This document shows, piece by piece, positions 13,101 through 35,000 of a stretch of DNA of 64,000 nucleotides (within the stretch, counting starts at the first letter, position 1; each line of letters opens with the position of its first letter). Source of the stretch: Nitrosopumilaceae archaeon (GTDB taxonomy: Archaea > Thermoproteota > Nitrososphaeria > Nitrososphaerales > Nitrosopumilaceae); contig OZ242365.1 of assembly GCA_965208905.1 (NCBI GenBank), positions 704,001-768,000 on the forward strand, written 5' to 3'. A program made the position numbers and the translations under genes. The notes under the pieces were generated by a model. It was given only the letters and a program-made list of their open reading frames with translations. It made no database searches and was not told where the DNA came from.

Positions 13101-16061
13101 AGAGGCTCATCCTATCTTGTGTTAGGTTATGCAGGAGGTCCGGAGGAGACCGGCGATAGAGCAGGATTCCTCAAGACCGACTCTGATACTGTAAGACAGT
13201 TCGGACCAATCCAGGAGATTGCTCCTGATGCAGGAGTCTTTGAGATTGACATTGAGCTTGCGTATACTGACGGTCCCTCTAGTGGTGACTGTCCAATTAC
13301 AGCTCCAGATGGCTATCCAGACTATCTAACCGATGATGGTTATGATGACAAACGATTTGCCACAAGTGCTCACTTCTGTATACTACAAGGCGATACGCTT
13401 GAAGTAGAGTACAGAGACCCACTTGACGCATCTGGTGATCCAAACACTGTCACAGATTCAGCAACCTTCGATCTACGAAATGGTGTGCTACAATCTGACA
13501 AGAGCCAATATGTTATTGGTACTGACATGATACTGACACTCATTGAGCCCGACTTTGACTTAGACAACGACCAAGCCGAGACCTACGACCTTGACCTGAT
13601 TGAATGGGACTCTGATGCTGCTACACTCACCATGGGTGACAGTGGCGGAGAAGACACTGCATTTGATCCGGTACCGATGTACTTTATAGAGACTGGTGAT
13701 AGTACTGGTATATTTCAGACTATAATTCGGATACCTACCGAGCTTGAGGGCGATGCATTGGATAGAGGCGAGGTTATCACACTCGAGTATGTAGACTGGG
13801 GCCCTGCAGACGCTAATTATGTTGGTGATGCAGACAAGAATATACGACTTGTGGTGTCAACTACTGACTTTGGTGCTACCATGGAACTAGACAAAAAGGT
13901 TTACACGTGGACCGACAAGGTCTACATCACTCTAGTATCTTCTGACCACAACTATGACAGCGACTTGGTGGACGAGATTGGCGACACATCAACATATCCA
14001 CTAAAGATATCTACACGTGGTTATGCACTTGATAGATACAAATTGGTTGAAACAGGTACGGACACCGGCATCTTTACTGGTGAGATAGTTCTGACTGGGT
14101 TCTTAGCTCACGATGCGGACGGTGACGGTGTACAGAATGACGCTGATGGTGAGACCGGCGGTGATGGACCCACTGGTGGGAGACTTCAAACCGCCAACGA
14201 TGATAGCCTCTCTGTATCGTTTGAATACGGTGAGGGTATAACCGTCACTACATCTGCCCTAATTCACTGGAGTATCGGTGAGGTACAATGGCTCGAACCA
14301 AGCTATTCGGTTAACGGCGCCGGAGTAGTTCAAGTTATAGACCCGGACATGAATCTACATCCGGAATATGTCGATAACTTTGAGGTCAACGTCTGGTCTG
14401 ATTCGGATGCCGGCGGTATTGATTTGACTGTATCAGAGACAAATAGGGCGACAGGCGTTTTCGAGGGAATCGTACACTTTACAACCGAGGAGACCTCTGG
14501 GAATCACCTCAAGGTTGCCGAGGGTGATACTGTTACCGCTGGGTATGAAGACCGCACACTTCCAGACCCATACGATATACGAGATGATCTTGATGTCACT
14601 GATACCGCACTAATTGGCAGTACTGTGATATCAGCGGTTGGAGAGACCGTAGTGCTTAACACAAAAGGATCATCTGTACCTGGTTGTGAGGTGACCAACG
14701 ACTGCTTTGTGCCTCCTGTAGTCACCATAAATATGGGCGAGAAGATAGTCTGGAAGAATGTTGATACTGCAGCCCACACTGTCACCAGTGGTGTACTGGC
14801 TGATGGTGGCCCAGATGGCGTATTCGATAGTGGCCTGTTTGTTCCAGATACTGAATTCTCTTATACATTTGACACACTAGGCGAATATCCGTACTTTTGT
14901 CTTGTCCACCCGTGGATGGCGGGTATGATAGTCGTCCAAGAAACTGTAGATGATACTCCATCGGGTCAACCATACGTTAACATAGAGAACAACTTTTTCA
15001 TGGAGTTTCCTAAAGAGTGGTCTGTCCAAAATATGTACGGTGCAGATCAGCCAACTGTAGCGGCGGTGGGTTCTAGCATTGGTGTGATACCTCCAAGTAT
15101 CGCAGTATACGTTGAAGAGGCCGGTAGTCGCACGCTAAACACTGTTCGCGAAAGTAAATTGGCAGATTTAGAGACACTGGAGGGCAATCTTGAGATTTTA
15201 AATCATGAATTGGTAAGTATAAACAGTTTTGATGCTTTCGTATTGGATGCCACATATGTATTTGATCCGGGCACTGTACTCACGGATATTAAATATCGGG
15301 AAGCGACCATAGTGTCCTCTGGTAAAATCTACACCCTTTTGTTCAGCACAGCCTTGAGTGACTTTGACTCATACGTACACCATTTTACAGAATCGTTAGA
15401 ATCGTTTGGAATAATTATGCGTGAGAGTGATGAATCGCCCCCCCAGCGTACCATACGGGAGACTGATCTACGACTGGAATTTTACGATTCCAAGGGTAAC
15501 CACTACGTATGGACCCTACCCATATCTGCGTATGAGGATGCTGTGTTTGAAAGTCGTCTGAAATCCACATTCCTGGCGCTAAATCCACTACGACTTGATA
15601 TGGATGATGGGGAGACCATAACCACTACCAGACTAGATGGCTTCGTCCGGGGCAGTTTTGACAACGTAATAGATAACGTGTATGACAACTCATATGATAA
15701 TGCTGACTTTATCTGGGAGGTCTGGCATGTAGTATCGCAGTTGACAGTCTATGATGCGGATGTATATCTGCATAGCGAGGGCAGGTTTGCCACTGAGACG
15801 TTCTCACGTGGAGGTGGGGACTGCGAAGATCTGGCCATACTGATAGCGGACATGCTGGCCTCCTCGGAGCATACTGCGGACTGGAGCATTCAGTATCTGT
15901 ATATGGATACGGACAATCCCAAAGATCCGCAGAAGGTAAATCACGTGATGCTGCATGTAGATGATGGTGTACGTACTTACCTGATAGAGGCTACGGGCGA
16001 GCCGAGCTGGGATTACTATCCGGATGGTGTACGTGGATGGTTTATCGATGTCCAAGACTAG
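10155..16061 (+). CDS. S-layer protein paralogue with C-terminal cupredoxin, PsbP-like and transglutaminase-like domains
   Basis: Co-linear with 18565-23418 for about 1480 aa (ETGxxTGIF repeats); then HTVT...CLVHPWM copper site and GDCEDLA/NHV/IEAT triad. True start probably 10179-10275. Confidence 0.85.
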   Translation: MICKRLGKMKINYGTRDLTDMRPFYNSDVRTAISHICSKDMFVIIIVASVLAYTIPDVVPVAYADNTLYVSAESDMFENHFVGAQVIEVIVANDQYTNRNVSFMPTVTVNNNPLLMVQAQSGNWYGYFVEMDKAKVASANGAIYYGEMTEIQYDFSTVLNLYLLEWPFDEAYGHYALKEPAVGHLIFGEYYYSGTPILAYSFTEGDDVEVKLHNGASTESVTLRYDTVEDYAGLLLDRGTYPQNAHVHIAITDTWLNIDPTSEDIWTMTTGDDPSLYYGVDNVGDVAVDTFDLMCDVNCVLIVNKDLQNQGDVLELSPNFDRYRLTDTDIEQFSIRFGEVSPNSGVFTNSDDYGGANVVITDTARRGTTATIDYNDSPIDIAVANSFARIDIQLQDDTWNSGEEIPVIIEDDDANRNGAWSESMVVSDPKSIIPTLVIGSPITLDDNSMYSTGDDNYMSTETTTFSKRGSVSVDGNTLVLHYDGQPLNLLDHGPDFEGFIYFNYHFESLTEDSVSVTLTNADSVDAVVADNCMTDNIGMTLDCLVVAGAITSSQSDDILDFDEIPDFGSDACSATLVDDGDAIGYLNVDDALGMLDNCNDNDDIVLVVNGMLEGDHAPVVADFMAFGYTDDGVQGSERVADQIIRIEAEETDDNTGVFEGSLEYIMVNQLNVLDQDTYDSVDPISDAPIFIVFEDMTDENAPKVTYLDLGADGVYTQISDSQDVPSHSGVVTFDSGNYKIADTVTVTLNDPDLNTDSELIDIYTVVRDSDSSVFGKVGSDLGVKETFGDLGRLLDITFDNWDWPSASNCDFNGNADGLQATGFSLVETGVATGIFTGDFQIPAEWCYDGWLESTAGYDIQVNYVDFRDESGDIMEVGDSSAVGAHTGSVSLDRTVYPVPFGLPENFGHDKDHEADPDNESFFPIHSTGFDGDSGLKYINAGDLTIHVRVTDTDYDVSATSQDTISQAVEGTDHTGPVKVMVKRGSSYLVLGYAGGPEETGDRAGFLKTDSDTVRQFGPIQEIAPDAGVFEIDIELAYTDGPSSGDCPITAPDGYPDYLTDDGYDDKRFATSAHFCILQGDTLEVEYRDPLDASGDPNTVTDSATFDLRNGVLQSDKSQYVIGTDMILTLIEPDFDLDNDQAETYDLDLIEWDSDAATLTMGDSGGEDTAFDPVPMYFIETGDSTGIFQTIIRIPTELEGDALDRGEVITLEYVDWGPADANYVGDADKNIRLVVSTTDFGATMELDKKVYTWTDKVYITLVSSDHNYDSDLVDEIGDTSTYPLKISTRGYALDRYKLVETGTDTGIFTGEIVLTGFLAHDADGDGVQNDADGETGGDGPTGGRLQTANDDSLSVSFEYGEGITVTTSALIHWSIGEVQWLEPSYSVNGAGVVQVIDPDMNLHPEYVDNFEVNVWSDSDAGGIDLTVSETNRATGVFEGIVHFTTEETSGNHLKVAEGDTVTAGYEDRTLPDPYDIRDDLDVTDTALIGSTVISAVGETVVLNTKGSSVPGCEVTNDCFVPPVVTINMGEKIVWKNVDTAAHTVTSGVLADGGPDGVFDSGLFVPDTEFSYTFDTLGEYPYFCLVHPWMAGMIVVQETVDDTPSGQPYVNIENNFFMEFPKEWSVQNMYGADQPTVAAVGSSIGVIPPSIAVYVEEAGSRTLNTVRESKLADLETLEGNLEILNHELVSINSFDAFVLDATYVFDPGTVLTDIKYREATIVSSGKIYTLLFSTALSDFDSYVHHFTESLESFGIIMRESDESPPQRTIRETDLRLEFYDSKGNHYVWTLPISAYEDAVFESRLKSTFLALNPLRLDMDDGETITTTRLDGFVRGSFDNVIDNVYDNSYDNADFIWEVWHVVSQLTVYDADVYLHSEGRFATETFSRGGGDCEDLAILIADMLASSEHTADWSIQYLYMDTDNPKDPQKVNHVMLHVDDGVRTYLIEATGEPSWDYYPDGVRGWFIDVQD

Positions 16062-18564: not shown

Positions 18565-21500
18565 ATGGAAAACGAAATAATACGAAAATCAACTAGTATT
18601 ACACTTATGGCGATCATGGTCGCTGGCGGACTTACATTTGCTATTCCAGGTGTCCTACCTGCCGCATATGCGGACAACGCATTGTATGTATCTGCCGAAA
18701 GCGAGATGTTCGAGAATTACTTTGTCGGTGCTCAGGTTATTGAAGTCATAGTTAATGATGATCAATACCGAACTGATGAGAACCGCGGAGATTCATACAT
18801 GCCCATTGTGACTGTGGATGATAACCCACTCCCAATGTATCAGGCAACAAGCGGTAACTGGTATGGTTACTTTGTAGAGAAAGATAAAGCAATGGAGGCC
18901 CAAAATGAGAATCTGTTTGACTTTGGTGATCGTGCCGAGTTAAGTACTGATGAGTGTCCTACAGTGGATGACATTGAATGTACCACGGACAACTTCAAGT
19001 TTGAGTTTTCAGAAACAAGAAATGTACTCGCTGAACCTCCAGGCCGTCCTGCAATCTATGCATTCGGCTTTACTGAAGGTAGTGACATCGATGTAGAACT
19101 AGAAAATGGTGCTGATACAGAGACTGTTACACTAAGTTATGATACTGTAGAAGATTACGCTGGATTGATGCTAGATAGAGGTGCATATCCTCAAATGGCC
19201 CATATCCATCTTGAAGTTACTGATGCATGGTTAAACATTGACCCAACATCTGAAGATGTTTGGTACTTTAATACAGTAGAAAATAATGAAGCCTCCTATA
19301 GAGGTACTAGCAATTACGTTGCCCTGCAAGATACAGGTCTAATGTGTGATGATAACTGTGTTTTGCTGATAAACCCTGATAGACAGGGTACAAACGAAAA
19401 TGGTGTTCTAAAAGTCGCAAGCAACATGGATCATGAGTTTGACGATGATGCTGAAAAGAAATACTACCCAATACGCCTTGAGGAGGGTTCGCCTAACTCT
19501 GGTGTCTTTACCAATACCGATGATGATGATGCAGCAAACTTGATGATAACTGACGATGCTAGAAGAGGTACCACTGCTACCATTGACTATAATGATTCCC
19601 CAATTGATATTGCAGTCGCCAACAGCTTTGCTAGTATTGACATACAACTGGACGATGATACATGGAACTCTGGCGAAGAGATTCCAGTAGTGATTACAGA
19701 TGATGATGCCAACAAGAATGGTGCCTCTGATGAGGACATGTTGGTATCTGATCCAGACACGATTATCCCGACACTAGTCACTGGTAGTCCAGTTACCCTA
19801 GATGATAATTCGATGTACAATGCTGATGGCCAATACGCGGATCGTGAAGCCTACATGGACACTGAAACCACGACCTTCTCAAAGAGGGGTACTGTCAGTG
19901 TTGATGGCAACACTCTGGTCTTACTGTACGATAAACAACCGTTAAGCCTGCTTAATCACGGAGATGACTTTAAGGGCTTTGCCTACTTTAACTATCACTT
20001 TGAGTCTGTATCTGATTCAGTCAGCATTACACTGACTAACCTCAACAGCGTTGATGCTGTAGTGGCAAACAATTGTATAAATAACAATTCTCTTGACATG
20101 ACTTTGTCTTGTCTTGAAGACGCTGGTGCAATAAGCTCAGACGATCGAGAAAATTTTCTGGACTTTGATGATATTCCAGACTTTGGTAGCGATGCATGTA
20201 GCGTCACCCTTGTAGATAATGGCGACGCAAGTGGCTATGTAAACATCGATAAATCTCTTAACATGCTAGGTAGTTGTGACGCAGATGAGAGCATTGTCCT
20301 TGTGATAAGCGGTGATATGCTTAATGGTGATGATGCACCCGTTGTCGCTGACTTTATGTCGTTCGGATATAATGATGACGGCGTTCAGGGTAGCGAGCGT
20401 GTTGCAGATCAGATTATCAGAATAGAGGCTGAAGAGACCGATGATAACACAGGTGTCTTTGAAGGCGCACTGGAGTATATCATGGTAAATCAGTTGAATG
20501 TCCTAGATAAAGCCACTTATGACAGTGTTGATCCTATTAGCGATGCACCTATCTTCATAGTATTTGAAGATATGACCGATGAGGATGCACCAAAAGTCAC
20601 ATATCTTGACTTGGGCGCCGATGGCGTTGCAACACAGGTATCTGACAGACAGGAGGCTCCTTCACACTCTGGTATAGTGACATTTGATTCTGGTAATTAC
20701 AAGATTGCCGATACTGTAACAGTTACTCTAAACGACCCAGATTTGAACACAGATTCAGAACTTATCGATATCTATACTGTTGTCCGTCAAGCAGATTCAA
20801 GCGTCTTTGGAAAGGCTGGTGAGGTCTTGACGTATGGAATGCTAGAATACAATCAGGCTGCACAGAATGTAATTGAGGATTGTGAAGATGATAATAATAA
20901 TAGAGCACATCAGGTAGACTGCGAAGCCATAGAGGTTAAAGAAACGTTTGGTGATCTAGGTAGATTGCTTGACATTACCTTTGATGATGCAGATTGGCCT
21001 AAACCTAACACTTCTGGCTGTAGCTTCGGCGGTGATGGCGATGGCCTTCACGCAACCGGCTTCTCCTTAGTTGAGACCGGTGTCGCAACCGGCGTCTTTG
21101 TGGGTGACTTCCAAATACCAGCAAAATGGTGTGAGGATGGTGAGCCTGAGACTACCACTGGATACGACATTGAAGTCAACTATGTAGACTTTAGAGATGC
21201 ATCTGGTGAAATCATTGAAGTGGGTGACAGCTCTGCTGTCGGCGCACACACCGGCTCAGTCTCACTAGACAGAACCGTTTACCCGGTACCGTTTGGTTTG
21301 CCTGAGAACTTTGGTCATGATAGAGACCACGAGGCCGATCCAGACAACGAATCATTCTTCCCCATACACTCTACAGGATTTGATGGTGACAGCGGTTTGA
21401 AGTATATCAACGCTGGTGACCTAACAATCCATATACGAGTAACTGATACTGACTATGATGTATCTGCCACTGGCCAAGATACAATTAGTCAGGCAGTTGA

Positions 21501-23418
21501 GGGTACAGATCACACTGGTCCCGTCAAAGTGATGGTAAAGAGAGGTTCATCCTATCTTGTGTTAGGTTATGCAGGTGGTCCAGAGGAAACTGGTGATAGA
21601 GCAGGATTCCTTAAGACCGACTCTGATAAGGTAAGACAATTCGGACCAATCCAGGAGATTGCTCCTGATGCAGGAGTCTTTGAGATTGACATTGAACTTG
21701 CGTATACTGACGGTCCCTCTAGTGGTGACTGTCCAAACACAGCCCCTGATGGCTATCCAGACTACCTAACTGATAATGGTGACGACAACCGATTTGCCAC
21801 AAGTGATCACTTCTGTATACTACAAGGCGATACGCTTGAAGTAGAGTACAGAGACCCACTTGACGCATCTGGTGATCCAAACACTGTCACAGATTCAGCA
21901 ACCTTCGATCTACGAAATGGTGTGCTACAATCTGACAAGAGCCAATATGTTATTGGTACTGACATGATACTGACACTCATAGAACCAGACTTTGACTTAG
22001 ACAACGACCAAGCCGAGACCTACGACCTTGACCTGATTGAATGGGACTCTGATGCTGCTACACTCACCATGGGTGACAGTGGCGGAGAGGACACTGCATT
22101 TGATCCAGAACCAACCGACTTTAGGGAGACTGGTGACAGTACTGGTATATTCCAGACTATAATCGAGATTCCTGCAGAGTTGGAGGGTGACAGGTTGGAG
22201 AGAAACGAGGCTATCACACTAGAGTATGTAGACTGGGGTCCCGCTGGCGCTAACTATGTTGGTGATGAGGATGAGGATGTACGACTTGATGTTGTAACCT
22301 CTGACTTTGGTGCTACCATAGAACTAGACCAGAAGGTTTACACCTGGACTGACAAAGTATACATCACTATAGTAGCTCCTGACCACAACTATGACAGCGA
22401 CTTGGTGGACGAGATTGGTGACACATCAACAGATCCACTAAAGATATCTACTCGTGGTCATGACCTTGACAGATACAAATTGGTTGAAACAGGCACAGAT
22501 ACCGGCATCTTTACTGGTGAGATAATTCTGACTGGATTCTCAGCTCACGATGCTGATGGTGACGGCGTACAGAGTGACGCTGATGGTGAGACAGGTGGTG
22601 ATGGACCCACAAGTGGGAAACTCCAAACCACTAACGATGACGGACTCTCTGTATCATACGAATACAGCGAGGATGTTACTATCGTCACATCTGCTCTAGT
22701 TCGCTGGAACATTGGTGAGGTACAATGGCTTGAATCAAGCTACCCCGCTAGTGGCACTGGCATAGTTCGAGTTATAGACCCAGACATGAACCTAAACCCA
22801 GAAGCTGTCGATAACTTTGACATCAACGTTTGGTCTGATTCAGACGCTGGTGGTATTGACTTGACTGTAACGGAGACGAATGAAGCGACTGGAATATTCG
22901 AGGGTACTGTATCCTTCACAATCGAGACGGAGTCCTCTGGACACCGACTCAGAGCTGCTGAGGGCGACACTGTTACCGCCGAGTATGAAGACCGCACACT
23001 TCCAGATCCATACAGTACGAGAGATGATCTCGATGTCACGGCCACCACACTGATTGGCACTATTGTACCTCCACTGGAGAGAGCACCCGCCTCTAACTTG
23101 AGAGTGGTTGACTCGTTCGGAAACAGTCTAGATACTGTCTCTGTTGACCAGCAGGTACAGATAACCGCTGATCTGACAAACGGTCAGAACAGAAACCAGG
23201 CATTTGCATATCTGGTACAGGTTCAAGATGCTAATGGTGTAGTAGTAAGTCTAGCTTGGATTACAGGTTCACTCACTCCTTCACAATCATTCAGTCCGGC
23301 TGAGTCTTGGACTCCCGATATGGCTGGCACATACACTGTGACTGCCTTTGTATGGGAATCACTTGATAACCCGACTGCACTTTCACCACCTATAACGACA
23401 GAAATTACCGTACAATAA
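18565..23418 (+). CDS. slaA: Major S-layer protein (Nitrosopumilus type)
   Basis: MENEIIRKSTSITLMAIMVAGGLTFA leader; acidic Ig-like repeats; canonical end AFVWESLDNPTALSP. Confidence 0.9.
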   Translation: MENEIIRKSTSITLMAIMVAGGLTFAIPGVLPAAYADNALYVSAESEMFENYFVGAQVIEVIVNDDQYRTDENRGDSYMPIVTVDDNPLPMYQATSGNWYGYFVEKDKAMEAQNENLFDFGDRAELSTDECPTVDDIECTTDNFKFEFSETRNVLAEPPGRPAIYAFGFTEGSDIDVELENGADTETVTLSYDTVEDYAGLMLDRGAYPQMAHIHLEVTDAWLNIDPTSEDVWYFNTVENNEASYRGTSNYVALQDTGLMCDDNCVLLINPDRQGTNENGVLKVASNMDHEFDDDAEKKYYPIRLEEGSPNSGVFTNTDDDDAANLMITDDARRGTTATIDYNDSPIDIAVANSFASIDIQLDDDTWNSGEEIPVVITDDDANKNGASDEDMLVSDPDTIIPTLVTGSPVTLDDNSMYNADGQYADREAYMDTETTTFSKRGTVSVDGNTLVLLYDKQPLSLLNHGDDFKGFAYFNYHFESVSDSVSITLTNLNSVDAVVANNCINNNSLDMTLSCLEDAGAISSDDRENFLDFDDIPDFGSDACSVTLVDNGDASGYVNIDKSLNMLGSCDADESIVLVISGDMLNGDDAPVVADFMSFGYNDDGVQGSERVADQIIRIEAEETDDNTGVFEGALEYIMVNQLNVLDKATYDSVDPISDAPIFIVFEDMTDEDAPKVTYLDLGADGVATQVSDRQEAPSHSGIVTFDSGNYKIADTVTVTLNDPDLNTDSELIDIYTVVRQADSSVFGKAGEVLTYGMLEYNQAAQNVIEDCEDDNNNRAHQVDCEAIEVKETFGDLGRLLDITFDDADWPKPNTSGCSFGGDGDGLHATGFSLVETGVATGVFVGDFQIPAKWCEDGEPETTTGYDIEVNYVDFRDASGEIIEVGDSSAVGAHTGSVSLDRTVYPVPFGLPENFGHDRDHEADPDNESFFPIHSTGFDGDSGLKYINAGDLTIHIRVTDTDYDVSATGQDTISQAVEGTDHTGPVKVMVKRGSSYLVLGYAGGPEETGDRAGFLKTDSDKVRQFGPIQEIAPDAGVFEIDIELAYTDGPSSGDCPNTAPDGYPDYLTDNGDDNRFATSDHFCILQGDTLEVEYRDPLDASGDPNTVTDSATFDLRNGVLQSDKSQYVIGTDMILTLIEPDFDLDNDQAETYDLDLIEWDSDAATLTMGDSGGEDTAFDPEPTDFRETGDSTGIFQTIIEIPAELEGDRLERNEAITLEYVDWGPAGANYVGDEDEDVRLDVVTSDFGATIELDQKVYTWTDKVYITIVAPDHNYDSDLVDEIGDTSTDPLKISTRGHDLDRYKLVETGTDTGIFTGEIILTGFSAHDADGDGVQSDADGETGGDGPTSGKLQTTNDDGLSVSYEYSEDVTIVTSALVRWNIGEVQWLESSYPASGTGIVRVIDPDMNLNPEAVDNFDINVWSDSDAGGIDLTVTETNEATGIFEGTVSFTIETESSGHRLRAAEGDTVTAEYEDRTLPDPYSTRDDLDVTATTLIGTIVPPLERAPASNLRVVDSFGNSLDTVSVDQQVQITADLTNGQNRNQAFAYLVQVQDANGVVVSLAWITGSLTPSQSFSPAESWTPDMAGTYTVTAFVWESLDNPTALSPPITTEITVQ

Positions 23419-24474: not shown

Positions 24475-25950
24475 GGGAATTATATAGATAAGAACACAGC
24501 CACAGATGCGCGCTTATCCCTTTTCTGACGACTTCGTTGTATGGAGTGGAGCATGGCGGGTGTTGGCTTGTAGCCCTCCTTGTGCCCCGGCCGTCTTAGG
24601 ACGACATTCCCCGCCGCCCGATACAGAATGTTCCAGGCGGCATTGACATCCGCGTGGAATACCCTGGTACAATTAGTGCAAATGAATTTGTCGCGTGATA
24701 TACGCGACTCTGAATCTACGTGATCACACACATGGCACGTCTGGCTCGTATATTTGGCCGATGCCCCCAACAGCGGTATGTTGTGTATCTCACACCACTG
24801 CGCAAGCTTGCGCAGGAACTCCCCAACACGGTTCTCCCGCATTGAACGGTTCATGGCGCGTTTGTAATTCCCGCCATGTGTGGTCATGTCTTTTACGGAG
24901 AACGACTCGACCACAATTGCGTCCACACCATTAGTTATCTGCGCAATCGTCTGATTTATCGTGTTCGCAGCTATGTTGTTGGCCTTCCTGTATAGCCGCC
25001 TTATTTGGTCATTCAATACACACCACTTCCGGCCATGCCGTACCTTGTGGTCACGAAGGTTCTTGAGCGCGTCAATCTCCCGCAGGATTGCTCTATGGCG
25101 TGTGTTGTGTATTGTAACATTGCCATTTGTGTCGACGGTAACTGCCAAGTGCTTGCAGCCCACATCGACACCACGCATTACACCAGTATTGCGGTGCGGC
25201 TCGACCGGGACGCGCACGGCGATATGCAGCTCAAACATGTGGTCTGACGGCTTTGTATGCTTGTCCACCCGTTTGGTGACATCAACTATCTTGAATGAGC
25301 GCATGTCCCATGATACAGCGATGGGCTTGGCGGTCTCTACAATACCATATCCGGGGATATGGATGGTGTGCTCACCTTTTCTTACCGGCGGATTTATACA
25401 GCTAAGTATGATGCGGCCGTCTTTGCGGCGGTACGGCGCGTGGTCTGAGTTGTCATCTATAACCCTTCTACATGCGACGGAGGCATCCTGTATGGCGCCC
25501 CTGCCAAACGATGCGGGGTACTCGCGCAGCCATGTATGTTTGGCGCGCCACCCCGTAAGCTGCTTGAACATGCCATACTTTAATGCCCTCTTTGACGGCC
25601 CAAAATCATATGTATGGTAGTCATCGTCCAACGTACCTGATGTAAAATCCAGCTTGCCCGGTAGTTTGAAGGGCTGCAGGATGTCCACTACCACCCTCCC
25701 CATATATTCACCACCAAACAAATACTCTGATACGGCGCGGTTGTACACATGTCTGGATACATGGCCCATACGGTGCACCCACTCTGCAAACAACACATCC
25801 CTTCGTAGCGGTACCTTGACTATCCGTATCATGATGTGTAATACGGTATACTGGTATTTAAGGAAGAATGTGGCGCATAGGCATGAAATCCATGGTGGTT
25901 TAGGCGTTAACCAAAACCTCCACAGGTGTGTTCTAATCTATATAATTCCC
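24475..25950 (-). mobile_element. TIR-bounded non-autonomous element carrying tnpB (IS1595-like ends)
   Basis: 24-bp TIRs 24475-24498 and 25927-25950 (23/24); 8-bp TSD TTCTTTAT at 24467-24474 and 25951-25958. Confidence 0.9.
24480..25832 (-). CDS. tnpB: TnpB RNA-guided endonuclease (copy 2)
   Basis: GVDVG, VVE, TSQTCHVC, CTNC, HADVNAAWNI; stop codon lies inside the TIR. Confidence 0.92.
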   Translation of the reverse strand: MIRIVKVPLRRDVLFAEWVHRMGHVSRHVYNRAVSEYLFGGEYMGRVVVDILQPFKLPGKLDFTSGTLDDDYHTYDFGPSKRALKYGMFKQLTGWRAKHTWLREYPASFGRGAIQDASVACRRVIDDNSDHAPYRRKDGRIILSCINPPVRKGEHTIHIPGYGIVETAKPIAVSWDMRSFKIVDVTKRVDKHTKPSDHMFELHIAVRVPVEPHRNTGVMRGVDVGCKHLAVTVDTNGNVTIHNTRHRAILREIDALKNLRDHKVRHGRKWCVLNDQIRRLYRKANNIAANTINQTIAQITNGVDAIVVESFSVKDMTTHGGNYKRAMNRSMRENRVGEFLRKLAQWCEIHNIPLLGASAKYTSQTCHVCDHVDSESRISRDKFICTNCTRVFHADVNAAWNILYRAAGNVVLRRPGHKEGYKPTPAMLHSIQRSRQKRDKRASVAVFLSI

Positions 25951-26219
25951 TTCTTTATCATGTATAGAATATCTTGCGCAGTCTTTATGCCGCATGTCAC
26001 ATCATGTGTAGTGGGCATATCTTCTATGCTGGGATATCTTGCTACTATCCATGATGAGATTATGTCCCATTCGTATTGTACACGTTTGATATCCCAGCCA
26101 TCAGGTACTGAATCTATTTTGACGAACTCGTCAGTATCTTGACGTGTATTTTTGTATGCGGTTGGAGTGGACCCCATAGAATGTTACTGTTTTCGGCATG
26201 ATTTTACATACATCTTCCA

Positions 26220-27077
26220 TCATTTATTTGTCATCTCCAACTGTTCGGCAAATTCTACTGGTGTCATGTATCCGATAGAGGAATGAATCCTCTCGGTGTT
26301 GTAATCTACAAAGGCCTTTGCAATGATCGTCTCTGCCTCCTGATAGTTCGCAAACTCGTGCGGCCAGATGTATTCCTTTTTCAGCGTCTTGTGAAATGAT
26401 TCGACATGTCCGTTCTGCTCCGGCGTATTCTTGTAGATGAATTCATGTTTGCCGATGCCAAGGGCCTGAACCGCATGTCTAAAGTCGCGGCTCGTATACT
26501 GGTTGCCGTTGTCCGTACGCAATCGTAATTGTGAGCAGTCAGGTTTCTCTGCGGCAACCGCGTTGGTGATTGAGGTGATTGCAATGTCTCGTGTGGCATT
26601 GACATCAAACGCGTAGGCGATCCACTTGCGCGTAAAGCAGTCAATTACGTTGAAGCAGTAGCACCAGCCGTCTATACCGCACCAGATGTATGTGATGTCC
26701 GTCTCCCACAACTGGTGTGGGGCTTTGGGTTTGAAGAGCTTTTGACCCGCTCGAATGATGTCGTTTTTGGTATTTTGTGGCTGGATGTAGCCCATTTTGC
26801 GATATATCCGCTGTATCTGCTTGCGGTTCACCACAATTCCCGTATCGCGCGTTATCTGGGCCGCCATGCGCCGTGTGCCGTACGTGGGCCTCTTTCTGCT
26901 CGTATCTAGCACAGTGCTCAATATATCCGGATTCAATCCCATGTCTCTGGGCTTGGGTTTGTAGTACCATTGGCGCCTGGATACGCCCGCATACCCTAGC
27001 GACTTGCGCAGGCTCAAATGTTGTTCCTGCATGATTTTTACCGCGTTCAATCGTTGCTTGCCTCCAAGGTTTTTTTT
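26220..27077 (-). CDS. IS3 transposase OrfB (DDE), reached by -1 frameshift
   Basis: WETDITY, RTDNG, VESFHKTLKKE; A8 slippery run at 27070-27077. Confidence 0.9.
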   Translation of the reverse strand, partial: KKNLGGKQRLNAVKIMQEQHLSLRKSLGYAGVSRRQWYYKPKPRDMGLNPDILSTVLDTSRKRPTYGTRRMAAQITRDTGIVVNRKQIQRIYRKMGYIQPQNTKNDIIRAGQKLFKPKAPHQLWETDITYIWCGIDGWCYCFNVIDCFTRKWIAYAFDVNATRDIAITSITNAVAAEKPDCSQLRLRTDNGNQYTSRDFRHAVQALGIGKHEFIYKNTPEQNGHVESFHKTLKKEYIWPHEFANYQEAETIIAKAFVDYNTERIHSSIGYMTPVEFAEQLEMTNK

Positions 27078-27337
27078 AAAGCGTCGTTTGCGATTGTCAG
27101 ATCCCCTATGATTCGCTTTAGGTCGCCGTTCTCCTTTTTGATGGCCTTTATCGGATCCTTCTTTCCGTGATGGGTCAGTCCGGACTTGCCTGCGTCCATG
27201 AACTTTTGCCGCCAGGCTTGAAACGTTTGGGGATGAACGTTGTGCTTGCGGCACAGCTCGGCCGTGCCAATATTGGTCTTGATTGATTCCAAAACGATCT
27301 GGATCTTTTGGTCTGGAGTAAACTTTGTTCTTACCAT
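27047..27337 (-). CDS. IS3 transposase OrfA (HTH)
   Basis: KFTPDQKIQIV...AELCRKHNV...W plus leucine-zipper tail. Confidence 0.9.
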   Translation of the reverse strand: MVRTKFTPDQKIQIVLESIKTNIGTAELCRKHNVHPQTFQAWRQKFMDAGKSGLTHHGKKDPIKAIKKENGDLKRIIGDLTIANDALKKTLEASND

Positions 27338-27511
27338 GGCATCATCCCTCCCATTACGACTTTAAGCTGTATGAACGTGAGTGTTCTCATTCTAGCGGGG
27401 TCCCCACCACGGTGTGTGGCAGTTCATTACCATCCTGATCCATGACATAAGCGACACATGAACGCTTTCCTATATCGATTCCAATACATGTTTTAATTTT
27501 TGTTATATTTT

Positions 27512-27709
27512 TCACCTCCTTTTTTCACAATACTGGCAAGCAGGTGACTGCACTGATACATCAGAACTGCCCGCATTATCGCAGATAACCGGCGCCCACA
27601 AAAGTTGCAGCTAAATTCGCCCCATTCACTATTGAGGGCTCGAAGCCCATGTTTATGCAGGGGTCTGCCCACCATACGTGCCTTTAGATGATCTGACATT
27701 TACTTACTC
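27512..27709 (-). ncRNA. IS110 non-coding left end, candidate bridge RNA (copy A)
   Basis: Directly upstream of the IS110 remnant; aligns without gaps over about 190 nt with 31777-31971. Confidence 0.65.
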
Positions 27710-27804
27710 TCACTAATGCACAACACATCTGTCGTACCATATACTCACATATACCAACATGTCCAGACACCACATATTACAGTGGCACAACTTCATCAAT
27801 CGTA

Positions 27805-28674
27805 CTATTTGTCATCGTCATCATCACCCAAAAAGATATCCATGCCAACTTCAGAAGCCTTCTGATATACGGCATCTAAGGCATCCATAAAGGACTCCTC
27901 ACTTCTCCAAAATGAAAGGCTGCCCAGTTGGCGAGGGAGGGATATGGACACTTCTGGTATGAATGCAGGGTGTGTCGGTACCATGCCATGTACACCTTTG
28001 CCCCAGAATGCATCCATGTCGACTGGAAGATCCTCATTCTTTGGAGCTTTCGGGGCCAGTATGGATACATCGGTATCGTGTTTAACATCTGAGAACGCAC
28101 TTACACCCATCATATCAAGTAAGTCCTTGGGGTCCATGCCCCTCACCCGCAGTATCAGAAGTGGTTCCAGATCAAAGCGCTCGGATACTATCAAATATAC
28201 CGCCGCTATATGTTTACAGGGATTGGCCCAGTCCCAGCAATTACAGTCAGTCTTTAGGTCATCGGGAAAGAGTGAAAGACCCACATCGCTAAAGACACTC
28301 TCCAGCTCTTCAGGCATCTGACCAGCCATCATCTTGGCGGCAATGACAGGTCTTGCCATCAACGAGTCTGCCACTTTCTTCCACTCGTCGGTACCCAGAC
28401 GTTTTACATTTATAGATACCTTGTACGGTTGGGACTCTGAGCCATACACGTCTCCATACACGCCACCCTTCTTCACATCTATTGACTCAACCTGGCCGCG
28501 GCGAGCGTATGAGCGAGCCCGGGCGAGTCGGCTATCATCTATTTTTTTATACAATATATCATTCCATCTCTTACCCCACCAGGTTCTAGCAGACTCACCG
28601 CGCTTTGACTGCAGTTTTATACCACCCTTGACCTTTTTGAGGCTACGAGATGTGTAATAATATCCGCCCCACAC
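27805..28674 (-). CDS. SWIM zinc finger protein
   Basis: RLARARSYARRGQV; CNC...CKH. Confidence 0.9.
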   Translation of the reverse strand: MWGGYYYTSRSLKKVKGGIKLQSKRGESARTWWGKRWNDILYKKIDDSRLARARSYARRGQVESIDVKKGGVYGDVYGSESQPYKVSINVKRLGTDEWKKVADSLMARPVIAAKMMAGQMPEELESVFSDVGLSLFPDDLKTDCNCWDWANPCKHIAAVYLIVSERFDLEPLLILRVRGMDPKDLLDMMGVSAFSDVKHDTDVSILAPKAPKNEDLPVDMDAFWGKGVHGMVPTHPAFIPEVSISLPRQLGSLSFWRSEESFMDALDAVYQKASEVGMDIFLGDDDDDK

Positions 28675-31667
28675 TATGCCATCGCCTCCCGACTCAATGC
28701 TAGTACCTCGCGCAACTCTTCATTGGACATATTGGCAATCCATCCTTCACCAGTACCAACTACACTTCCGGCTATCTGTTTCTTTTGTTCGATCATTTTA
28801 TCTATCTTCTCTTCAAGCGTACCAATACACATCATCTTGCGCACCTGCACGTTTTTGGTCTGACCTATGCGAAAAGCCCGGTCAGTGGCCTGGTCTTCAA
28901 CGGCGGGGTTCCACCACCGATCAAAGTGGAACACATGATTGGCGGCAGTCAGATTCAGACCTGTTCCGCCAGCCTTTAGAGATACAACAAACACCTGTAT
29001 TGCATCATCACCACTAAAGCGTTCCACCATAATGTCACGCTGTCGCCGCGGCGTGCCCCCATGTAGGAATAACACCTCACGACCAAATGTCTCCTGAATG
29101 TGTTGCTTTATGATGTTGCCCATCTCCACAAATTGAGTGAATATCAGGGCCTTGTCGCCGGTCTCTATCACCTCCTCAAGCATCTGTATGAGTCTGTCCA
29201 GCTTACCAGAGCGTTTTGGTATTGCAGAGTTATCTCTTAGGAAGTGGGCCGGATGATTGCACACCTGTTTGAGTTTGATAAGCGCTCCTAGAATTGCACC
29301 CTTTCGCCCCATGCCCTCGGACTCCAATATGGCATTCTCTACATCCTGTAGCACGGAAGCATATAGTGTGGTCTGCTCCTTTGTCAGGGCGCAGTACTCT
29401 TTAATCTCAATCTTATCGGGCAGATCTGATATTACAGACTTGTCGGTCTTGAGTCTGCGCAGTATAAACGGACCGGTAGCCCGCCGGAGCCTATTGATTG
29501 CCTCCTCGCCTTGGCCAGCCTTTATGGGACGTATAAAGTTCTTTTGGAACTGTTCTAGTCCGCCCAAAAATCCCGCATTCAGAAACTCCATTATGGACCA
29601 CAAATCCGCCACGCCATTCTCGACCGGCGTGCCGGTCAGGGCAAACTTATAGTCTGCCGTAATGGAACGTATCACCTGTGCCTGTTTGGCGTATGGGTTC
29701 TTGATATTCTGAGCCTCATCAGCCACAATACCACTCCATTCCACACCTCGTATTGTGTCAACATCACGTCTTAGTGTGCCATAACTTGTAACAACTAGAG
29801 CATGGCTAGCAGCGTCCTTGGCAAATGTATCAGACTTTGTCCTAGAAGATCCATGATGTATCATGACCGGCATGTTGGGCGTGAAACGAGCAGCCTCCCG
29901 TTTCCAGTTATTAATTACGGATGTGGGACATACCAACAAGGCCGGCCTACCCTCTCTTCCCTCCACATCCCGTTGTATCATGGTCAGTGTCTGAACCGTC
30001 TTTCCCAGGCCCATGTCATCTGCCAGGCATCCGCCCAATCCCAAATCTCGCAGGAATGACAGCCATGCATACCCCCGTCGCTGATATGGCCGGAGCTCTC
30101 CAGTAAAGTGTTTGGGCAGATTTGGTTCTTGTATGGTTGCCTGTCCATTCAATCTTTCTATTATATCAGTAATTGTATCTGCGGATGATACCCCGCCCCA
30201 CTCCAGATCCGCAGGCATATCGCCCATTCCCAGATCCATTTTAATCATGTCTTGCAGAGATCTTTTGTTACCACCCTTCTTTAACAAGCGTATGGCAGAG
30301 CGTATCTCTTTGTGACTCACCACAGCCCATTGACCCCGCATTCTCACAAGTGGTGACTTTAGTGCAGCCATCGCCTCCAATTCCTCGATAGACATAGTCT
30401 GATCCCCCAGTGCCACTTCCCAGTCAAATTGCATCACACTGTCCAATGTCAACATGCCCGAACTTTGATTGGTGGCGCGCTGCATATTGGCCCTGGCGGT
30501 CAGCCGCCGGGTCTTATCACGTCCCATCCACCACGCGGGAAGTATAACTCCATATCCTGCCTTACTGAGGGCCTCGGCATCACGGGTCAAAAATTGGTAG
30601 GCGCCACCTGCGCTGGTCGTATACCCCACAGGCCCATCCTTTGTTATTCCATTTGATATGTCCGGGCAGATGCTGGCAGCCTGTCCCAAGGCAAGCAGTA
30701 TGTGGCCTCGTATATCCGACTCTTTAGAGTTCCATACTGTGTCGGCGGGCACCAGTAGGCTGGGGTCATCGTTGGGTTGCACCAAATATCGCACAGTCCA
30801 TTTACCGTGATCTTTGTCGGGTTCTTCAATACGAAAGCATATTCGAAAGGACGAGCCTGCCATTACGCCTATAGGTGCCTGCCATTCGCGTATCTGGCCC
30901 ACCAGAGTCTGTACTCCCTCGGCAGTACCGGATATCGTGTTGTTGTTGGAGCGCAGCGAATGCAGCCACGCATCATGGTCACTGTCAAAGCGGGCACGGT
31001 GACGTCGATAACTCTTAGAGTCCGAGTGTACTGTGCGTACCAGATAATCAGTCATGTTCGATATTACATTCCACAACACTGTGACCGCGGGCTGAAAGAT
31101 AGTTTCCTTGTCTTCGCCCCATGTCAGGGCGCGCCCCGATGCGGGCATTTTGGCAGCGGCCACATCCATCCATTCGGCATCCTCACCCACAAATGCAGGA
31201 TTCCATACCCCCTTATACTTTTCATCAAAATGGGGTATGGCATCGGGCAGATACTGCTGTCTTGCAACCATTGAGATGGCCTGCCGTAATATGTGTGTCC
31301 ACCACGCCATATCTTCACCCACTATAACGCCATCTTTCAGAGTTCTCTTGCCATATGCCGTGCTCAATATCGCTATACTTTCGGCCATAGAGAGGCTTAG
31401 AGTTGCAACCTTCCAGGGAGCAATACGTTTTGGTGTCGCGCTCATTTCACCAAGCATGCCACTAGAAGGTACCGGGGCATCATCCGCGGTGGGAAGCCAT
31501 GCCACTGCCACTGCATCCTTACTCTTCTTTAGTATTGGAGATGTCTCCCGGAGCTCGTCAGTGGTAGCCGACAAAGGATGTTTGCCTTTTTTGGCTTTCG
31601 AGTCTTTGGATTTTTCAGCCCAGAGTACAAGCGAGTCCAGTATATTGGCCATATGTAGTATTAACAT
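28674..31667 (-). CDS. SNF2-family helicase/ATPase
   Basis: LRPYQ, LADDMGLGKT, DEAQ, LTGTPVEN, QATDRAFRIGQ. Confidence 0.95.
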   Translation of the reverse strand: MLILHMANILDSLVLWAEKSKDSKAKKGKHPLSATTDELRETSPILKKSKDAVAVAWLPTADDAPVPSSGMLGEMSATPKRIAPWKVATLSLSMAESIAILSTAYGKRTLKDGVIVGEDMAWWTHILRQAISMVARQQYLPDAIPHFDEKYKGVWNPAFVGEDAEWMDVAAAKMPASGRALTWGEDKETIFQPAVTVLWNVISNMTDYLVRTVHSDSKSYRRHRARFDSDHDAWLHSLRSNNNTISGTAEGVQTLVGQIREWQAPIGVMAGSSFRICFRIEEPDKDHGKWTVRYLVQPNDDPSLLVPADTVWNSKESDIRGHILLALGQAASICPDISNGITKDGPVGYTTSAGGAYQFLTRDAEALSKAGYGVILPAWWMGRDKTRRLTARANMQRATNQSSGMLTLDSVMQFDWEVALGDQTMSIEELEAMAALKSPLVRMRGQWAVVSHKEIRSAIRLLKKGGNKRSLQDMIKMDLGMGDMPADLEWGGVSSADTITDIIERLNGQATIQEPNLPKHFTGELRPYQRRGYAWLSFLRDLGLGGCLADDMGLGKTVQTLTMIQRDVEGREGRPALLVCPTSVINNWKREAARFTPNMPVMIHHGSSRTKSDTFAKDAASHALVVTSYGTLRRDVDTIRGVEWSGIVADEAQNIKNPYAKQAQVIRSITADYKFALTGTPVENGVADLWSIMEFLNAGFLGGLEQFQKNFIRPIKAGQGEEAINRLRRATGPFILRRLKTDKSVISDLPDKIEIKEYCALTKEQTTLYASVLQDVENAILESEGMGRKGAILGALIKLKQVCNHPAHFLRDNSAIPKRSGKLDRLIQMLEEVIETGDKALIFTQFVEMGNIIKQHIQETFGREVLFLHGGTPRRQRDIMVERFSGDDAIQVFVVSLKAGGTGLNLTAANHVFHFDRWWNPAVEDQATDRAFRIGQTKNVQVRKMMCIGTLEEKIDKMIEQKKQIAGSVVGTGEGWIANMSNEELREVLALSREAMA

Positions 31668-31776
31668 GTTATGAGATCACACATGTATGATATTTCAAAG
31701 TATCTTTTAATGGACCTGTTCAATCTTCAACTGATCCTCCAAATCACTCAAAAATACCAAAAAACAATCGTACTTG

Positions 31777-31971
31777 AAAGTAAATGTTAGTCCATCCAAA
31801 GACACGTATGTCGGGCAGACCTCTTACTGACAATTGACTTCGAGTCCTCGTACTTGAATGGGGCGAATTGAGCTGCGACTTTTGTGGGCGTCGGTTATCC
31901 GAGAGGATGCAGGCAGCTCTTATGTATCATTGCAGTCGCCTGCTTGCCGGTACTGTGAAAAAAGGAGGTGA
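31777..31971 (+). ncRNA. Orphan IS110 non-coding left end, candidate bridge RNA (copy B)
   Basis: Homologous to 27512-27709; stops right after AGGAGGTGA with no recombinase following. Confidence 0.6.
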
Positions 31972-32006
31972 GTGTGTACCTCTAATGCTCACAAGCACAT
32001 AATAAT

Positions 32007-35000
32007 GTGAAATACATATGCAAGTTTATGTGGACGTGGTTTGCGTTTGTATTGCTTATCATATCTGGAGTGTCTATCCCTGTATTGGCGCTCGAGTACC
32101 CTGATTTTGCGCAAGATGCACCCAACTACACATCAAATATAGTACAGTTTGATCCCAGCACGTTTCAATCGTATAATCTACACCGCTATATCACAGATAC
32201 TGGTATAGTGGTGCAGGATGACTCTTGGCCAAATGTACTATTTGGCGCCATGCGTGACATAAAACTGACACAGCACAATCAGGCAGCAGATATAGGACAT
32301 GTTACCGGCTCCACAGTTGCCAATAATATGTATAATGCCACCGGTAAAGGTGTTGTAGTGGCCGTAGTGGACTCGGGTGTGGACTTTTCCAATCCAGACC
32401 TGATACATGCAATAGCCAGGGATAAGAACAACTATCCTATAATGCTGGACCCTGACGGGCAGGGCATAGTGATAACAAATGCAACCTTTGCATCCAACAT
32501 AGATGACAACGGTATAATACGAAATATCGAAGATATTGGAAATCACACATCAAGAGTGTATGTGGATGACGCCGGCGTATATCTGGATGTGTACCAACAA
32601 GGGGTGGGAACCGAACTAGCTGTATACAATACATTTTACCCAATGCTGGGAAGTTCGCCAATACTGACAGGTTTGATGGATGATGATTTGAAGATCGGTG
32701 ACAACAACCGAGACTTTATACGGTCCCAGAGCGGAGTGTATCACTTTGGTGTCGCACTGTTACTTAGTGGGAATCAAATTCTGGTGGTACCATTGTTGAT
32801 AGTGGATTCGCAGACTGCTGGCATATATGATACAGTAATACCTGACATGTCTACATCCTGGGCAGACTTTATGCTACGTATAGGCTCAGATGACTCTCCA
32901 AAACTAGACTTTGACTTTACTGATGAGACGCCCATCATACTGGGTAGCGGAAATGAAGTACTAGTGTATGATCACAATGATGATGGCTACGGAGACTATA
33001 GCGCTGGCGTGCTGGGCGCCCGAGTCTTGGATGTATATGGTGCAATATCAAATACTACTACCCCTGACGACTACATCACTGGGTCCATAAATGCAACACT
33101 ACTAGAACCTCTGGATGTGGACGGCAATTATCTAGGTATAATGACTGACTATAGTTACCATGGCACGGCAGTGGCTGGCGTCATATCATCTAGAGGCAGT
33201 CAATCGTATGATATATACAATGATACTGAACTTTACACAATTCCAGGAGTCGCTCCTGATGCCAAAATATTACCCGTCAAGGCGTTATGGTATGGTAGTG
33301 TCGAATACGGCTGGCTGTGGGCTGCTGGTATGGAGAATGATGGTGGTGGATGGGAGTACACCGGCGAGGAACGCGCTCATATAATAACGAACAGTTGGAG
33401 CGTACCTACATTTCCCAATGTAGAGGAGGCGCCCGGCTATGACCAGCTATCTACATTAGCCAACACATTAACCACGCCCGGCGCCCTGCATCAGAACCAT
33501 CCTGGTGTAGTAATGATAGCCAGCGCCGGAAATTCAGGTCATGGATATGGTACCATCAGCTTACCTGGCGCTGCATCATTGGTATTATCGGCCGGAGCGA
33601 GCACCAGCTCTGCATACGTAAACACTCCGATATTTGAGGGACAGCCTCGATTTGGCAACTCTACCATACATGATAATCATTTGGTGGACTTTTCCAGTAG
33701 GGGTCCGGGTATAATAGGTGATACAAAACCAGATCTGGTATCCATGGGAGCTTATGGTTTCTCACTTGGTATGGTAACCAAAACTGATGTAGACTCCGAA
33801 GACGAACCATACAGACTATTTGGAGGTACATCCATGTCTGCACCCCTGATTGCTGGAGTTGCTGCCATTATAATCGAGCAGCTAACAACAAACGATATGC
33901 CGTATACGCCATTTACAATAAAGAATATACTAATGTCAACTGCCAACGACATGGGAAATGACCCCCTTGTACAGGGGGCCGGACTTGTAAATGCAACCAG
34001 AGCATCTGAGTATGTGGCCGGTGATGGGCCGTTCCTGGTCACTAATGATATGTCGTATACAAACATTCGTGAGGCGACACTACCTGCCATCCAGTCATTG
34101 AACAATACAATATTTGGAATTGATCATATTGCAGTACCGCCAAAGTCGTACCCCATGAGTAGTTGGTTTGCTGGCCATCTACAACATAACCAAAAGAGTG
34201 CAACTACATTTACAGTAACAAATCCCACAGACCGGCCCATCACAATACAGGTACAACCACAGACCGTTTCAATATTACAGCAAGGAGATGTGAATCTAAC
34301 CACTATCCCCCGCCAACAAGATATTGTAATGAACGATGATGGTGTATATGCCCCCAATTACGTACTGTTGTCGGATGTACGACAGACATCAACACTATCT
34401 GAGATATTTGCTCCCAACGACATACCAGAGTCCTCACTCTTGGTCTTGAATGTCAACTTTGACTTTGATGAATTTCTAAACTCTACTGCAGATGTATTCG
34501 CCGATGACTTTGTAATATCCTCATTATATCTATACGACTGGATTGATCGTAACGGTGATGGCGAGATAGAGGCTGGCGAGCTGGCCATGGTGAATAGAGC
34601 TGGAAATTGGGGAACTGTCCAAGAGATGAGAGTATCACATCCGCATCAGATATTTGACGGCATACCCGTTGTGGGGGTATACCCGGTACCTGTAAAGGCA
34701 TCATACTGGCGTGGGATTACCGATGTCAACGCCACTGCCATGGACTATACAATTACCGCCACATACTATGATAGGGTACACTGGCCGGATGTGTGGCTGG
34801 AGTCCAGCAGTATTGTGGTGCCTCCACAGTCCGAATATACAATAAACGCTGCCATCTCGGTTCCGCCCAACGTGGACAGCGGCATATATCAGGGATTTGT
34901 CACGTTCATGTCAGATACACATACAGTAAACGTACCTGTGTCATATGCTGTCACGCAACCAGTTACAGATGGTATGATACACCTTGTATCGGGCAATGAT

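Follow-up and report, generated by a model that had tools for sequence, protein, structure and literature searches.

The 64-kb window analysed here (64,000 nucleotides (nt) of contig OZ242365.1) belongs to the genome of a Nitrosopumilaceae archaeon, which consisted of one 2.21-Mb contig. The small-subunit and large-subunit ribosomal RNAs of this genome scored best with archaeal models, in agreement with the archaeal assignment of a preliminary description made from the letters of the window. A repeat scan of the window, with a minimum length of 40 nt, gave a single inverted repeat, whose arms were at 27512–27705 and 31778–31971. The two arms were 194 nt long, aligned without gaps, were 81% complementary and were separated by 4072 nt. 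They faced outward from a 4-kb segment that carried an SNF2 helicase operon. We considered it about 90% probable that the two arms, called copy A and copy B, were left-end relics from separate insertions of related, differently programmed elements of the IS110 superfamily, each with a bridge (seek) RNA gene. The extent of the two copies was as follows.

27512–27710, minus strand: copy A, an element's left end of the IS110 superfamily and probable bridge-RNA gene, from element base 1 (27710) to the ribosome-binding site GGAGGTGA (27512–27519).
31777–31971, plus strand: copy B, solo left end and probable bridge-RNA gene, ending with GGAGGTGA (31964–31971) and without a recombinase gene after it.

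The preliminary description had pointed to a variable 9-mer in each ungapped copy that recurred in the DNA just outside. The alignment, the words and their spacings of 84 and 80 nt were all found again as stated. The 9-mers were CAATAGTGA in A (27626–27634, minus strand) and CGTACTTGA in B (31849–31857). The flank words were CATTAGTGA for A (27710–27718; 8 of 9 letters) and CGTACTTGA for B (31769–31777), and the exact match in B extended to 11 nt (31768–31778 equal to 31848–31858). The change in the adjacent hairpin, GGGCTTCGAGCCC versus TGACTTCGAGTCC, was a compensatory exchange of G-C for A-T at alignment columns 88/96. In the case of the flank, the match was real, but the final A of the word (27710 in A, 31777 in B) was element base 1. 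The flank proper read CATTAGTG in A (27711–27718) and CGTACTTG in B (31769–31776). The guide parts of the two copies, in the terms of the RNA model given below, were as follows.

27649–27659, minus strand: target-binding loop of A, 5′ side, TGCATAAACAT; right-target guide, assigned from family covariation with right flanks.
27624–27635, minus strand: target-binding loop of A, 3′ side, TCAATAGTGAAT; holds the left-target guide.
27627–27634, minus strand: left-target guide of A, CAATAG+TG; 5 of 6 variable positions and the TG equal the flank.
27711–27718, minus strand: left target flank of A, CATTAG with core TG.
27598–27606, minus strand: donor-binding loop of A, 5′ side, AACTTTTGT; ACTTT, reverse complement AAAGT.
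27552–27563, minus strand: donor-binding loop of A, 3′ side, TGATGTATCAGT; TC in place of the TG of family members whose right end is known.
31824–31834, plus strand: target-binding loop of B, 5′ side, TTACTGACAAT; predicts a right flank GTCAGTA, the own right flank being lost.
31848–31859, plus strand: target-binding loop of B, 3′ side, TCGTACTTGAAT; holds the left-target guide.
31849–31856, plus strand: left-target guide of B, CGTACT+TG; 6 of 6 variable positions and the TG equal the flank.
31769–31776, plus strand: left target flank of B, CGTACT with core TG.
31877–31885, plus strand: donor-binding loop of B, 5′ side, GACTTTTGT; ACTTT, reverse complement AAAGT.
31920–31931, plus strand: donor-binding loop of B, 3′ side, TTATGTATCATT; TC in place of the core, like copy A.

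The right-target guide of A predicted a right flank of TG+TTTATGC, and the right flank of A itself was also lost. The 5′ donor guide agreed with the element's own bases 1–5 at four of five positions in A (AGAGT) and at all five in B. The copies differed at 36 aligned positions, and these were unevenly placed. The 13 variable positions of the target guides held ten of them, and the remaining 181 positions held 26 (Fisher p = 3e-6). The donor guides hardly differed, with 0 of 5 changes on the 5′ side and 1 of 6 on the 3′ side. This pattern is the expectation for two retargeted elements of one lineage.

The RNA fold was determined by comparison. We gathered and oriented 38 regions, and the alignment was made of 26 distinct left ends. 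RNAalifold gave 26 pairs in five helices, and 16 of the 26 pairs had compensatory changes. The helices were a 9-bp closing stem, a 4-bp stem with a hairpin around a first internal loop, and a 5-bp stem with a hairpin around a second. The cells of the alignment were paired in 97.9% of cases, versus 35–50% when the partners were slid by one to three columns, and none of 500 shuffles reached any of the five fold measures. G-U cells outnumbered A-C cells by 52 to 5, which placed the RNA on the recombinase-sense strand. The covariance model built from these copies, R1, found the left ends of the family, with 74 matches in 84 sequence sources. Copy A matched R1 over its full length with 127.5 bits (E 5.5e-31) and copy B with 110.8 bits (E 1.2e-26). 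The base pairs of the model were intact at 26 of 26 places in A and at 24 of 26 in B. Rfam at gathering score gave no match in the window besides one tRNA, and Rfam 15 gave none in 27300–32100 at E values up to 1.

In the favoured reading, the first ~175–200 nt of the element are the gene of a bridge (seek) RNA, read from the strand that also codes for the recombinase. The closing stem encloses two modules, each of a stem, an internal loop and a hairpin, of which module 1 would bind the target and module 2 the donor. By analogy with IS621 and ISEc11, a complex of recombinase and RNA would synapse the circular junction of right end and left end with the target, and strands would be exchanged at TG. 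That the RNA is transcribed and bound by the protein, that a circular intermediate forms and which chemistry follows are all inferred.

The target guides were then compared with the flanks of the family. The left-target guide, on the 3′ side of loop 1, followed the pattern T-N6-TG-AAT. Over 56 distinct insertions, among which 39 different N6 words occurred, the N6 word agreed with the six flank bases ahead of the junction TG at a mean of 4.32 of 6 positions, and 47 insertions reached at least four. When the guides were permuted, the mean was 2.01 (sd 0.12; maximum 2.39 in 2000). Positions −1 to −4 matched in 48–51 of the 56 insertions; the numbers were 27 at position −5 and, close to chance, 16 at position −6. 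An independent set of 25 insertions from other genomes, for which 12 of 37 matches had been set aside as incomplete or irregular, gave 4.68 of 6 against 2.67 (sd 0.18). The right-target guide was the 5′ side of loop 1, with the form T-N7-CA-T, and was the reverse complement of the right flank. It agreed at 4.19 of 7 positions over 32 distinct right flanks, versus 1.78 for permuted guides (sd 0.18; maximum 2.47 in 5000). Among the 32 flanks, 24–25 matched at positions +1 to +3 and 17–19 at positions +4 to +6. The right ends were placed at the point of divergence in multi-copy families and with the donor guide itself in single-copy elements. The core TG was present at both junctions in all families examined, once before element base 1 and once closing the right end. 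In 43 of the 56 insertions, the RNA base after TG was the same as element base 1, like a handshake base.

Based on these results, the target had a form of about N4-5 TG N3-6. The covariation of left guide and left flank that had been proposed from the two window copies held in further copies, far above permuted guides, but the effective length of the guide was about 4–5 nt plus TG and not 9 nt. The proposed core (T)GA was not confirmed; the core was TG, and the A that follows was element base 1. Natural reprogramming, which had also been proposed, agreed both with the 39 left guides found in 56 insertions and with the concentration of the A–B differences in the target guides. In one partial left end (L092, G000:C1:1703697-1703826), the sequence started at base 1, broke off after the TG in its left-guide word and passed directly into GAAACAG, which is the target's right half. 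The body of the element between the guide DNA and the right junction seemed to be deleted. This may have been a recombination at the guide word, which mimics the left half of the target.

The donor loop gave results of the same kind. Five bases on the 5′ side of loop 2 were the reverse complement of element bases 1–5, with 4.41 of 5 agreeing versus 2.92 (29 distinct combinations). The 3′ side of loop 2 equalled the last 5–6 bases of the right end together with TG, and six types of right end were each mirrored by the 3′ donor guide. Covariation was thus observed for all four guides. These results also bear on the possibility that the unit is only a structured 5′ leader regulating translation of the recombinase, with the flank matches as a by-product of chance or of flank copying. 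The unit ended at the ribosome-binding site and was probably co-transcribed with the recombinase gene, and the ATA found in place of ATG in many copies suggested tight translational control. However, 39 left and 37 right distinct guides tracked their own flanks on opposite strands, and loop 2 tracked the ends of the element. A leader function does not predict such tracking, and we regarded a leader without a guide role as very improbable. The two roles could coexist.

The unit was linked to IS110 recombinases in the same genome and elsewhere. A search with copy A gave four places in the genome. Two were A and B themselves, and the other two were partial matches, each some 100 nt upstream of a gene for an IS110 recombinase. 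R1 found five places in the genome, two of them directly upstream of recombinase genes (c1780 and c573). The c573 gene was frameshifted. An intact recombinase, which the preliminary description had proposed to look for, was present at c1780, where 350 amino acids (aa) were matched. It scored 210 bits with the NCBIfam model NF033542, 'IS110 family RNA-guided transposase' (cut-off 140), and in PDB it matched the chains of IS621 and ISCro4 (E ~1e-11) with the serine motif YQSG aligned. In the genus, R1 matched 9 of 10 genomes including that of the window, and thus 8 of the 9 others. For other genomes, 38 further loci were taken from 80 recombinase loci found, and R1 lay just upstream of the gene in 35 of them. 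The ~175-nt unit was located in the non-coding end of an element with the domains DEDD_Tnp_IS110 and Transposase_20. Both the assignment to IS110 and the linkage to its recombinases, as first proposed, were borne out by these data, and the bridge-RNA reading of A and B was supported by the fold, the guide covariation and the recombinase linkage. Relatives of the c1780 protein (E ≤ 1e-20) occurred in 32 of 201 genomes and in 10 of 27 genera of a family sample, the own genome and genus counted. The relatives carrying such recombinases were assigned to Nitrosopumilaceae, Nitrosopumilus, Cenarchaeum and Nitrososphaerales, and some genus mates carried at least 10 copies.

Several features were observed around these recombinase genes. 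The c1780 element (L020; around 1779940 and 1781625) lay amid clustered short repeats, which read (G)AGTGGAAA(C/T) and also occurred upstream of the recombinase at 1695622. Its guides GGAGTG and GAAACA appeared to target this repeat. A 149-nt repeat resembling a miniature inverted-repeat transposable element, with 30-nt terminal inverted repeats, was present at 1779700–1779850 and at no fewer than eight other places with 100% identity, and one copy adjoined the c1780 element. The start position, 6–8 nt after GGAGGTGA, was ATG in some members and ATA in many (L051–L061 and others). ATA was found in the element present in at least 10 identical copies in a genus mate, in c1780 and in copy A (window 27497–27499). 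In the case of c1780, there was no ATG, GTG or TTG between the in-frame stop and the GIDIGK motif. ATA may be a weak non-canonical start that limits synthesis of the recombinase. A second, unrelated IS110 family was present at 1375051, 1695622, 1908172 and 138414, with its own conserved left end of ~190 nt, and all three near-identical copies lost the recombinase frame at about residue 270–300. A conserved G+C-rich hairpin (..GCCGCCCC..GGGGCGGC..) was located within the 330–400 nt that follow the recombinase gene in elements of the genus (e.g. L020, L051), and it was also found in this second family of the same genome.

Both window copies are inactive as elements, and neither has a right end. 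The features next to them were as follows.

27410–27511, minus strand: recombinase remnant of A, first piece (..IGIDIGKRSCVAYVMDQDGNELPHT); N-terminus of NF033542, E 0.0034.
26163–27409, minus strand: IS3-family element (orfA HTH_Tnp_1, orfB rve; Pfam), which splits the recombinase remnant of A.
26114–26158, minus strand: recombinase remnant of A, second piece (AYKNTRQDTDEFVKI), read through across the IS3 element.
27805–28674, minus strand: partner gene of the helicase, 289 aa; no Pfam or NCBIfam match.
28674–31667, minus strand: SNF2-family helicase, 997 aa, with DUF3670.

In the case of copy A, a 45-residue open stretch downstream of the arm carried the N-terminal IS110 motif IGIDIGK..DGNEL. 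The frame resumed past the IS3 element for 15 residues, and homology to c1780 and to a relative in genome G018 ended at about codon 53. No further pieces of the A recombinase were found over the genome by tblastn. The IS3 element had a 4-bp duplication CGGT and inverted ends TGG..CCA, and 13 further copies in the genome were 99.8–100% identical. It was evidently the most active element here. A TnpB-type gene (OrfB_IS605 and Cas12f1-like TNB) was located at 24480–25832 on the minus strand and at 25801–25961. Its 5′-end 60–160 nt recurred at more than 10 places in the genome, and the homology of the A recombinase stopped near this element. The word ..CATGTATC, 1955 nt from the left end, was considered as the right end of A and was rejected; it lay inside the TnpB element region and was within chance expectation. 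Both copies have lost their right ends, and the right-flank words predicted for them were found in the genome only at unrelated places. In the case of copy B, homology ended right after GGAGGTGA, and the next open reading frame was a subtilase. After the break near the ribosome-binding site, B (31972–32006) and a solo left end of another genome (L106, genome G100) continued with similar words (GTG..CCTCTAATG). These may be the end of another mobile element with a preference for this place, and the sequence was unique in the genome of the window.

The operon between the arms was then compared with that of relatives. The closest NCBIfam model for the helicase was the SCO1167/SCO6262 family helicase, with 700 bits under a cut-off of 1200. 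The pair of helicase and partner was 84% identical in a genus mate (G083), where both copies were absent, and a paralogue was present in the own genome. Alignable homology with G083 ended at 27804 and 31703. In G018, an A-like left end was located near the orthologous operon, behind an extra gene, and its own recombinase was cut after ~65 codons. Contigs assembled from short reads (four DNA runs of one sample, probably the same sample as the genome assembly) spanned the junctions of both A and B without differences. No joint between the arms and no strand change was present in the contigs of that one sample. Two joints with low support were seen in them, with short sides of 21–25 letters.

These data were used to weigh two further explanations. 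The pair might bound a 4-kb SNF2 segment, composite or invertible, as its terminal inverted repeat, used as DNA and not as an RNA gene. It was the only long inverted repeat in the window, and its outward arms enclosed two co-oriented genes. However, each arm was homologous to the left ends of dozens of unpaired single IS110 elements, the arms were only 81% alike with differences in the guide positions, and no transposase for such a unit was present. In addition, the 84%-identical operon of the genus mate was without such arms, and inversion joints were absent from the short-read contigs. We therefore gave this explanation very little credence. Alternatively, A, B or both might be retained orphan bridge RNAs that work in trans with c1780, for example in rearranging the surroundings of the SNF2 operon. 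The well-kept pairs (26 of 26 and 24 of 26), the nearly identical donor guides, the intact recombinase of the same family and the inverted placement around one operon were all compatible with this. However, the donor guides (AAAGT.. and ..ATGTATC) did not fit the ends of c1780 (AAAGC.. and ..CATAGGTG), and the N-terminus of the A-lineage recombinase was only 68% identical to c1780 over 25 residues. The closest relative had the operon without either copy, and the contigs held no rearranged joints. With R1, A reached 127 bits and B 111 bits, less than multi-copy elements (160–171 bits). Orphan RNAs were thus unlikely, though somewhat less so than a composite segment or a mere leader. In the favoured reading as left-end relics, the two repeats should be annotated as dead mobile-element ends and not as regulatory elements of the SNF2 operon. 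Elsewhere in the window, 10287–14626 and 18613–23066 formed a large direct duplication (~8.3–8.4 kb apart, blocks 74–97% identical), and 5167–7395 was a run of ~160-nt periodic repeats resembling repeated protein domains.

Several observations weighed against the reading of A and B as ends of RNA-guided elements. The 3′ donor guide ..ATGTATC had TC for TG in A, in B and in the dead copy L097; all three were without a right end for comparison, and the recombinase of L097 was truncated too. Nine of the 56 insertions matched at three or fewer of six positions, and several of these were degraded or partial copies. In one case (L065, genome G135), the guide CAATTG did not fit the flank GTCTAC at all. 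Two copies whose guide did fit (CCTACT) had a flank paralogous to the one of L065. This suggested that gene conversion between copies had replaced the RNA gene of L065 once the element was inserted. For the right flanks, 9 of 42 insertions without a clean right end were left out, and the right ends of single-copy elements were located with a part of the RNA under study. Related copies were not independent, and the permutation figures overstate the significance because guides were shared among many related insertions. The single-sequence folds of A and B were no stabler than shuffles (z −0.25 and +1.38), so the structure was drawn from the alignment. Finally, the empty target site was not recovered, with G083 as the closest relative and intergenic flanks that were too diverged.

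The findings were compared with the literature. Bridge/seek RNA-guided recombination is established and widespread, and its occurrence in archaea was expected and not surprising. Archaeal IS110 recombinases are known (n = 662; bioRxiv 10.1101/2024.06.21.599552), and a 2026 preprint (10.64898/2026.10.21.760802) modelled 32,190 bridge RNAs with 86 covariance models, which may include the thaumarchaeal family. No paper describing bridge RNAs of Thaumarchaeota in its title or abstract was found; supplementary lists might hold the family. The analysis adds a well-supported RNA model for a family absent from Rfam 15, in Nitrosopumilaceae and Nitrososphaerales, and a clear record of natural retargeting that includes two diverged neighbouring copies differing mainly in their target guides. 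It also adds a layout outside both characterised subtypes, with the RNA upstream, the guide order of IS1111 and a TG core, and this bears on the divergence of the subfamilies. This layout bears as well on proposals that tie archaeal IS110 recombinases to Nop5 and C/D-box ribonucleoproteins (bioRxiv 10.1101/2024.06.21.599552). In practical terms, the family offers candidate programmable recombinases native to ammonia-oxidising archaea.

The family resembled IS621 (PMC11208160, PMC11208158) in that the left end, upstream of a DEDD/Tnp recombinase, holds the RNA gene and the RNA has a target loop and a donor loop. As in IS621, one guide reads the left half's bottom strand and the other the right half's top strand, with overlap at the core, and the base after the core acts like a handshake guide. 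However, the order of the guides inside each loop was reversed. In IS621, the left target guide (nt 50–58) precedes the stem-loop and the right target guide (nt 77–80) follows it (PMC11208160, PMC11208158), whereas the thaumarchaeal order was right guide, stem-loop, left guide. The core was TG and not CT as in IS621, and a long-range closing stem enclosed both loops, in contrast to a 5′ stem-loop followed by two serial modules. The similarity of the c1780 protein to IS621 was weak (47 bits), and since the host is an archaeon, the model of a sigma-70 promoter at the junction does not carry over.

With ISEc21 (PMC11187229), the family shared an upstream non-coding region with short segments complementary to both target strands, and natural retargeting has been reported among relatives of ISEc21 (PMC11187229). 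However, the complement of the top strand is located 3′ of the complement of the bottom strand in ISEc21, whereas it was 5′ in the thaumarchaeal family. In IS1111-type seekRNAs, the top-strand complement comes first, and in ISEc21, of the IS110 type, it comes second; the RNA gene lies downstream of the recombinase gene in IS1111 elements and upstream in IS110 elements, apart from a few members of IS1111 whose non-coding region is upstream (PMC11187229). The guide order of the thaumarchaeal family was therefore that of IS1111 (ISEc11, ISKpn4, ISPa11; PMC11187229, PMC11208160), but its RNA was located upstream. A further mark of IS1111 is the sub-terminal inverted repeat, usually of 11–13 bp. 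Such repeats were 13–21 bp long in compact 1.4-kb thaumarchaeal relatives and 13–15 bp in haloarchaeal relatives. The 1.6–1.7-kb elements of the window's genus had imperfect repeats of 7–9 bp, 16–29 nt from the ends, and A and B were without right ends.

In a plasmid collection, the best matches of c1780 were ISHvo9 (Haloferax volcanii pHV4), annotated as 'IS110-like element ISHvo9 family transposase', and a related Haloarcula element, with ~32% identity and E values of 1e-42 to 1e-47. By eye, these elements also had an upstream unit in which the segment after the hairpin repeated the left flank, and a right end ..CATAGGTG. However, R1 scored them with E values of only 0.19–0.25, and they were therefore taken as a sister group and not as the same RNA family. 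No published description of the ISHvo9/Haloarcula RNA was found; the supplements of the 2024 papers may list it. ISHvo10 is described as a diverged relative of IS1111 with long non-coding regions on both sides (PMC11187229).

We propose tentatively, as a possibility somewhat short of even odds, that the thaumarchaeal branch, probably together with the haloarchaeal ISHvo9-like one, combines the guide order and repeats of the IS1111 type with the RNA position of the IS110 type. Guide order and RNA location would then be uncoupled, and the branch might represent a living intermediate in the translocation that has been proposed for the RNA between element ends, actively retargeting in ammonia-oxidising archaea and serving as a native compact programmable recombinase. 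If true, this would give a native compact system (350 aa and ~175 nt) for organisms without genetic tools. Compared by layout, the thaumarchaeal family fits neither characterised subtype, IS110 or IS1111, and it fits the broad kind of bridge/seek RNA systems fully.

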